Shown here one piece after another: positions 1,096-1,213 of a DNA stretch of 56,519 nucleotides (positions are counted from its first letter, which is position 1; each line of letters begins with the position of its first letter). The notes below the pieces were generated by a model. It was not told the origin of the DNA, made no database searches, and saw only the letters and a program-made list of their open reading frames with translations. The position numbers were made by a program, and so were the translations under genes. Source of the DNA: Escherichia coli (GTDB lineage: Bacteria; Pseudomonadota; Gammaproteobacteria; Enterobacterales; Enterobacteriaceae); NCBI RefSeq assembly GCF_003334815.1, contig NZ_QOWO01000027.1, one strand, 5' to 3'.

Positions 1096-1162
1096 AGTGC
1101 TCTCCGCAAAATTATTTGTCGTTATGATTTAAATGTTTTGTTTTACACTCTGTCAAGCGTAA

Positions 1163-1179
1163 CTAATACTCCGCGCCAT
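1163..1179. promoter_or_regulatory. Candidate maoS site (17-bp cis target of MaoP) in the hdfR-maoP intergenic region
   Basis: The 17-mer ctaatactccgcgccat sits about 35 bp upstream of the maoP start. I recall maoS as a 17-bp site at this position; the exact sequence identity is from memory and unverified. Confidence 0.45.
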
Positions 1180-1213
1180 AACTAGCTCGGTCAAAGAATT
1201 AGGAGCGTGCAGG

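Follow-up and report, generated by a model that had tools for sequence, protein, structure and literature searches.

The hdfR-maoP locus

We analysed a stretch of Escherichia coli DNA of 56,519 bases (the window), and all coordinates given here are counted from its first base. The part that concerns us consists of two divergent genes and the short gap between them, with the following features.

256-1095, minus strand: hdfR, a LysR-type regulator of 279 aa, the divergent neighbour (open reading frame and annotation)
1096-1213: hdfR-maoP divergent intergenic region, 118 bp, the 'IR' of Valens et al. (open reading frame coordinates; length as published)
1163-1179, plus strand: maoS, the 17-bp cis-acting site CTAATACTCCGCGCCAT (exact match, unique in the window; identical to published maoS)
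1201-1205, plus strand: Shine-Dalgarno sequence AGGAG of maoP, 8 nt 5' of the ATG (sequence; conserved in alignments)
1214-1552, plus strand: maoP (yifE), a DUF413 protein of 112 aa, the trans-acting partner (open reading frame, RefSeq and Pfam)

Comparison of positions 900-1700 with the genome of E. coli K-12 MG1655 showed 100% nucleotide identity, and each of the 5,426 complete E. coli genomes contains a match to this segment. At the corresponding locus of MG1655 the RefSeq annotation has hdfR, yifB and, under the name 'macrodomain Ori organization protein MaoP', maoP; the 112-aa product of maoP was assigned to the Pfam family PF04219 (DUF413) with an E value of 2.8e-38. The gap between the divergent open reading frames measures 118 bp (1096-1213), and an exact search for CTAATACTCCGCGCCAT returned a single match in the window, at 1163-1179 on the plus strand, ending 34 nt before the ATG of maoP. 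No second match was found on either strand of the window with up to three mismatches allowed. In 4.6 Mb of sequence, chance alone would give a particular 17-mer about 5e-4 times. The initial annotation had placed the 17-mer in the hdfR-maoP gap, where it indeed lies, though 'immediately upstream' of maoP is a slightly loose description of a distance of 34 nt; the coordinates given there, 1096-1213, are those of the whole 118-bp intergenic region and not those of the 17-mer itself.

Exactly this sequence, CTAATACTCCGCGCCAT, was named maoS by Valens, Thiel & Boccard (2016; PLoS Genet 12:e1006309, PMC5023128), who located it within the 118-bp hdfR-yifE intergenic region. In that study the determinant of Ori constraint was narrowed from a 69-kb interval to hdfR-yifE-yifB, and then to yifE together with the 118-bp intergenic region; yifB was dispensable for constraint. 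The 17-mer constrained the mobility of DNA on both of its sides, on the same molecule only, and this action in cis held at an ectopic position and on excised DNA rings (PMC5023128). Constraint by maoS was seen only with MaoP (YifE), which could be supplied in cis or in trans, while a plasmid with both the intergenic region and maoP failed to restore constraint to a strain deleted for them in the chromosome (PMC5023128). Loss of the system freed the markers of the Ori macrodomain, allowed Ori-Right inversions and delayed segregation of the origin, whereas hdfR was not required for constraint and its deletion had the opposite effect on marker mobility (PMC5023128). The follow-up study of 2017 again described maoS as a unique 17-bp sequence (PMC5441646).

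Sequence, place and partner gene are exactly as published, and the identification of the 17-mer as maoS in the initial annotation was correct; so was its statement that the window holds both components, the MaoP gene at 1214-1552 and the cis site at 1163-1179. We conclude that CTAATACTCCGCGCCAT is almost certainly maoS, the 17-bp site, published as single, through which the MaoP/maoS system of E. coli acts in cis, adjoining maoP. The MaoP/maoS element of the window is therefore confirmed as one already described, both the observation and its interpretation being correct.

The surroundings of the locus were also inspected. Upstream of the hdfR-maoP locus, window positions 1-157 hold the distal part of an rRNA operon, with tRNA-Trp and a tRNA-Asp that is truncated by the start of the window; a hairpin with a T-run (atccttagcgaaagctaaggatttttttt) follows at about 160-195 and looks like the terminator of this operon. 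In many draft genomes a contig ends directly upstream of hdfR, the rRNA operon being the presumed break point. Between the convergent maoP and yifB genes, at 1553-1580, a short GC hairpin with an A-run on one side and a T-run on the other (aaaaagggcgaaatgcccttttttt) resembles a terminator that works in both directions; it was not listed by the consensus scan. [quoted passage not shown]

3376-3668, plus strand: Rev39_5p_UTR, downstream of yifB (157 bits)
18821-18920: TrxA 5' UTR thermometer
35505-35938: cluster of four tRNA genes
39562-39768: GlmZ sRNA

Conservation of maoS in the Enterobacterales

A scan based on alignment of MaoP, with one genome per species, found 539 relatives, and we analysed the best 80 of these loci, which encode MaoP proteins of 89-100% identity and belong to the Enterobacteriaceae and Erwiniaceae. 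Addition of Yersinia, Serratia, Providencia and Leminorella gave 84 comparison loci, or 85 sequences with the window. The exact 17-mer was present in 79 of the best 80 species genomes, upstream of maoP and 33-38 nt from its ATG; the sole exception, Silvania confinis, carries a single change (CCAATACTCCGCGCCAT). It was also found unchanged in all four of the additional genera (MaoP identity 79-86%), where the arrangement of an hdfR-like gene, maoP and yifB is kept with the LysR gene divergent. Conservation next to maoP orthologues, which the initial annotation had named as a check, was thus seen as an exact match in 83 of the 84 other Enterobacterales genomes sampled, and the sequence is single-copy in each of these 83 loci, as it is in the window.

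Over the 85 sequences 16 of the 17 columns of maoS are invariant, with AATACTCCGCGCCATA as the invariant run, whereas in maoP from the same genomes just 4 of the 112 third-codon positions show no variation. The longest invariant run in the maoP coding sequence is 4, and its identity to the window falls to as low as 72%. Because of this difference between the columns of maoS and the third-codon positions, maoS is, as judged from the alignments, under strong purifying selection across the Enterobacterales. The 17-mer forms the core of a larger block, approximately 1133-1186, which is nearly invariant in 81 sequences. Conservation of maoS in eight enterobacteria had already been documented (PMC5023128, S2 Fig B), and its presence in 83 of 84 genomes extends a known result and is no discovery.

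A predicted maoP promoter overlaps maoS

We then considered what else the 17-mer may encode. A consensus scan of the intergenic region found one sigma-70-like site, TTTACA-17 nt-AATACT, with 9 of 12 matches. One such match is the level seen in shuffled sequence for this region (0.9 expected), and the scan alone proves nothing. The elements of this predicted promoter are listed below.

1142-1147, plus strand: predicted -35 element TTTACA of the maoP promoter (consensus scan, comparative)
1165-1170, plus strand: predicted -10 element AATACT of the maoP promoter, inside maoS (consensus scan, comparative)
1171-1178, plus strand: GC-rich discriminator CCGCGCC, with the start probably at C1177 or A1178, inside maoS (position relative to the predicted -10)

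Among the 84 comparison species (L002-L085) the -35 hexamer reads TTTACA in 47, TTGACG in 34, TGGACG in two and TTTACT in one, and the spacing between the -35 and -10 elements is always 17. TTTACA and TTGACG each match TTGACA at five of six positions, and their alternation looks like the maintenance of promoter strength through alternative single departures from TTGACA. The ATACT of the -10 element is invariant in all ten aligned sequences, among them three loci from outside the Enterobacterales, and the CCGCGCC discriminator segment is invariant in the 85 sequences. On this reading maoS would be composed of CT, the predicted -10 element AATACT, the GC-rich discriminator CCGCGCC and the probable start of transcription, and the maoP mRNA would have a leader of approximately 36 nt, the AGGAG at 1201-1205 following.

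For the start site of maoP we consulted the transcription start tables of Kim et al. (2012; PMC3415461), Cappable-seq (PMC4782308) and ROSE (PMC10301672). Among the entries listed in these three sources there was none for yifE, maoP, hdfR or the expected coordinates, and a reporter-assay preprint of 2025 does not mention yifE, maoP or hdfR. The overlap between maoS and the predicted core promoter of maoP is absent from the text of PMC5023128 and goes beyond it.

DUF413 genes outside the Enterobacterales

A set of eight distant DUF413 loci, with 41-50% protein identity, was assembled from metagenomes and one NCBI assembly. Upstream of the DUF413 gene in five of the eight (L086, L088, L089, L092 and L093) we found T[TG][TG]ACN, exactly 17 nt, and then NATACT, an arrangement for which arithmetic gives an expectation of approximately 0.002 per 200-nt upstream region. 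The geometry of -35, spacer and core can be written in pattern form as TTKACN-N17-NATACTCC. The bases that follow NATACT in the five loci are CCCCG, CAGCA, CCGACCC, CCGCGCACT or CCGCCC. L092 reads CATACTCCGCGCACT and has 11 consecutive bases in common with maoS; a distant DUF413 locus of this type carries CATACTCCGCGC. A LysR gene neighbours the DUF413 gene in L086, L088 and L092. The gene contexts of L089 (after a DUF3014 gene) and L093 are unrelated, and some of the loci are without hdfR or yifB neighbours.

Because the same geometry recurs in five of the eight distant loci, ATACTCC, often followed by G and corresponding to the 5' two-thirds of maoS, is on this comparison an old companion of DUF413 genes, while the full CGCGCCAT tail of maoS is fixed only in the Enterobacterales. 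This core, found family-wide with distant DUF413 genes, is absent from the text of PMC5023128. We put forward, as a tentative reading which we hold to be possible and not probable, that maoS could be the -10/discriminator/start segment of maoP's own promoter and not a free-standing 'centromere-like' box, with an older ATACTCC(G) core carried along with DUF413 genes across the Gammaproteobacteria.

A stricter alternative would reduce the 17-mer to the core promoter of maoP, its conservation and its effect in cis both arising from binding of RNA polymerase or from transcription, with no dedicated target for MaoP. The match to TTTACA-17-AATACT, in which the 17-mer covers the -10 element and the bases after it, speaks for this, as do the alternation of the -35 between TTTACA and TTGACG at a constant spacing of 17 and the same geometry upstream of distant DUF413 genes. 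However, the 17-mer alone, without a -35 element, constrained an ectopic marker and needed MaoP to do so, and the intergenic region with maoP on a plasmid failed to rescue the chromosomal deletion (PMC5023128). The pattern of conservation also exceeds what a -10 element needs, in that nine further bases are invariant (CCGCGCCAT and the A that follows it are invariant in the 85 sequences), whereas most neutral sites of these genomes vary. Finally, the ATACTCC(G) core accompanies DUF413 genes even where the neighbouring genes are unrelated, which points to a site matched to the protein. We therefore consider it unlikely that the 17-mer is a core promoter and nothing else, and retain its identification as the cis-acting site of MaoP.

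The hdfR side of the intergenic region

The spacer of the predicted maoP promoter contains a hexamer that could serve the divergent gene, an assignment made weakly, from the sequence.

1151-1156, minus strand: TTGACA, candidate -35 hexamer for hdfR, within the spacer of the predicted maoP promoter

The corresponding plus-strand TGTCAA is kept in 83 of the 84 loci. Approximately 18 nt further along the minus strand, at about 1127-1134, lies TTAAAT, with TATAAT in its place in Leminorella. A back-to-back overlap of the hdfR and maoP promoters is thus possible, and the conservation of the flanks of maoS, that is of the whole block at approximately 1133-1186, would then be explained by the position of the hdfR -35 element in the spacer.

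A search for repeats and dyads in the intergenic region found none, and maoS is not a dyad; a reading of maoS as a palindromic operator was dropped on these grounds. Between hdfR and the maoP -35 element, at 1116-1128, the E. coli sequence carries a dyad-like element, TCGTTATGA, whose Leminorella version is a perfect AATCG-TTA-CGATT (AATCGTTACGATT) and which is conserved even in distant loci, for instance as ATCGTGATGAT in L086. From its form, this dyad is a candidate LysR-type box for HdfR.

The divergent LysR-DUF413 arrangement is itself conserved, and deletion of hdfR shifts marker mobility, in the opposite direction (PMC5023128), two observations that would be in line with the 17-mer being an operator of HdfR whose reported effects are indirect, through regulation of hdfR and maoP. 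Neither a dyad nor an inverted repeat of the T-N11-A kind is present in or around the 17-mer, however, and the better LysR-box-like dyad lies upstream, at approximately 1116-1128. Moreover, hdfR is not required for constraint (PMC5023128), and the ATACTCC core also precedes the DUF413 genes of L089 and L093, next to which there is no LysR gene. An HdfR operator at this position is therefore highly improbable. That an unrelated 17-mer merely matches maoS by chance can be dismissed, given a 17/17 match in the same 118-bp gap of a locus 100% identical to that of K-12, with only 0.02 chance matches expected in the window at up to two mismatches and 0.13 at up to three.

Comparison with other chromosome-organising systems

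With the MaoP/maoS system of E. coli K-12 the window shares an identical 17-mer, the 118-bp gap and the maoP locus; we found no difference, and the two are the same system. It resembles ParB/parS, which is present in most bacteria other than the Enterobacterales, in that a short cis site close to the origin, or a small number of them, influences a large origin domain. Unlike parS, a palindrome to which ParB binds as a dimer, maoS is not palindromic, and no similarity to ParB was detected in MaoP, a DUF413 protein of 112 aa. Its discoverers proposed that MaoP/maoS may in part make up for the absence of ParABS (PMC5023128).

MatP/matS, which acts in the Ter macrodomain, is like MaoP/maoS a site-specific pair of protein and DNA that gives low DNA mobility and insulation, and the likeness extends to a protein in the set that has co-evolved with Dam (PMC5023128). 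The two differ in that MatP has 23 matS sites over 800 kb, with known binding (PMC5023128), whereas maoS, described as unique, is an asymmetric 17-mer.

A possible mechanism for MaoP at maoS

As the most likely working model, we envisage that MaoP, alone or with a partner, would recognise the asymmetric maoS. Most sites of dimeric DNA-binding proteins are dyads, unlike maoS. From maoS, MaoP might then nucleate or load an activity working in cis along the DNA; tracking or loop extrusion has been suggested for this activity (PMC5023128). At the native locus the interaction of MaoP with maoS could also feed back on transcription of maoP and hdfR, which would follow from the overlap of maoS with the predicted -10 element, discriminator and start of maoP. 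In a Keio strain, a spontaneous yifE Q100TAG allele increased putrescine export, and transcription of hdfR and gltB was raised as measured by RT-PCR (PMC8674398). The rise in hdfR mRNA hints that MaoP acts on the hdfR-maoP intergenic region, with which it fits.

We also looked for direct evidence on the protein. PMC5023128 reports no ChIP, EMSA or footprint for binding of MaoP to maoS ('ChIP' has no occurrences in it and 'bind' is used only for MatP), and a literature search for later work on MaoP binding, Hi-C or structure, some of the queries being unspecific, gave only reviews and the 2017 follow-up. Comparison of the MaoP sequence with the PDB found no relative, and comparison of its predicted model with known folds gave no match.

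Implications

Recognition of an element already described brings no new knowledge of E. coli. What is now quantified is how extremely the 17-mer is conserved, in 83 of 84 genomes from several families of the Enterobacterales, and this may be of modest aid to studies of mechanism. The one lead that we consider worth noting is that maoS coincides with the predicted core promoter of maoP, together with the family-wide ATACTCC(G) core, which could make the mechanism easier to test. Should the overlap prove functional, the target of MaoP may be promoter DNA that is in the open-complex state or close to it, or MaoP may work together with RNA polymerase at this single promoter. MaoP would then be both an autoregulator and the entry point for an activity along the Ori region, and its mechanism would be testable with standard promoter tools.
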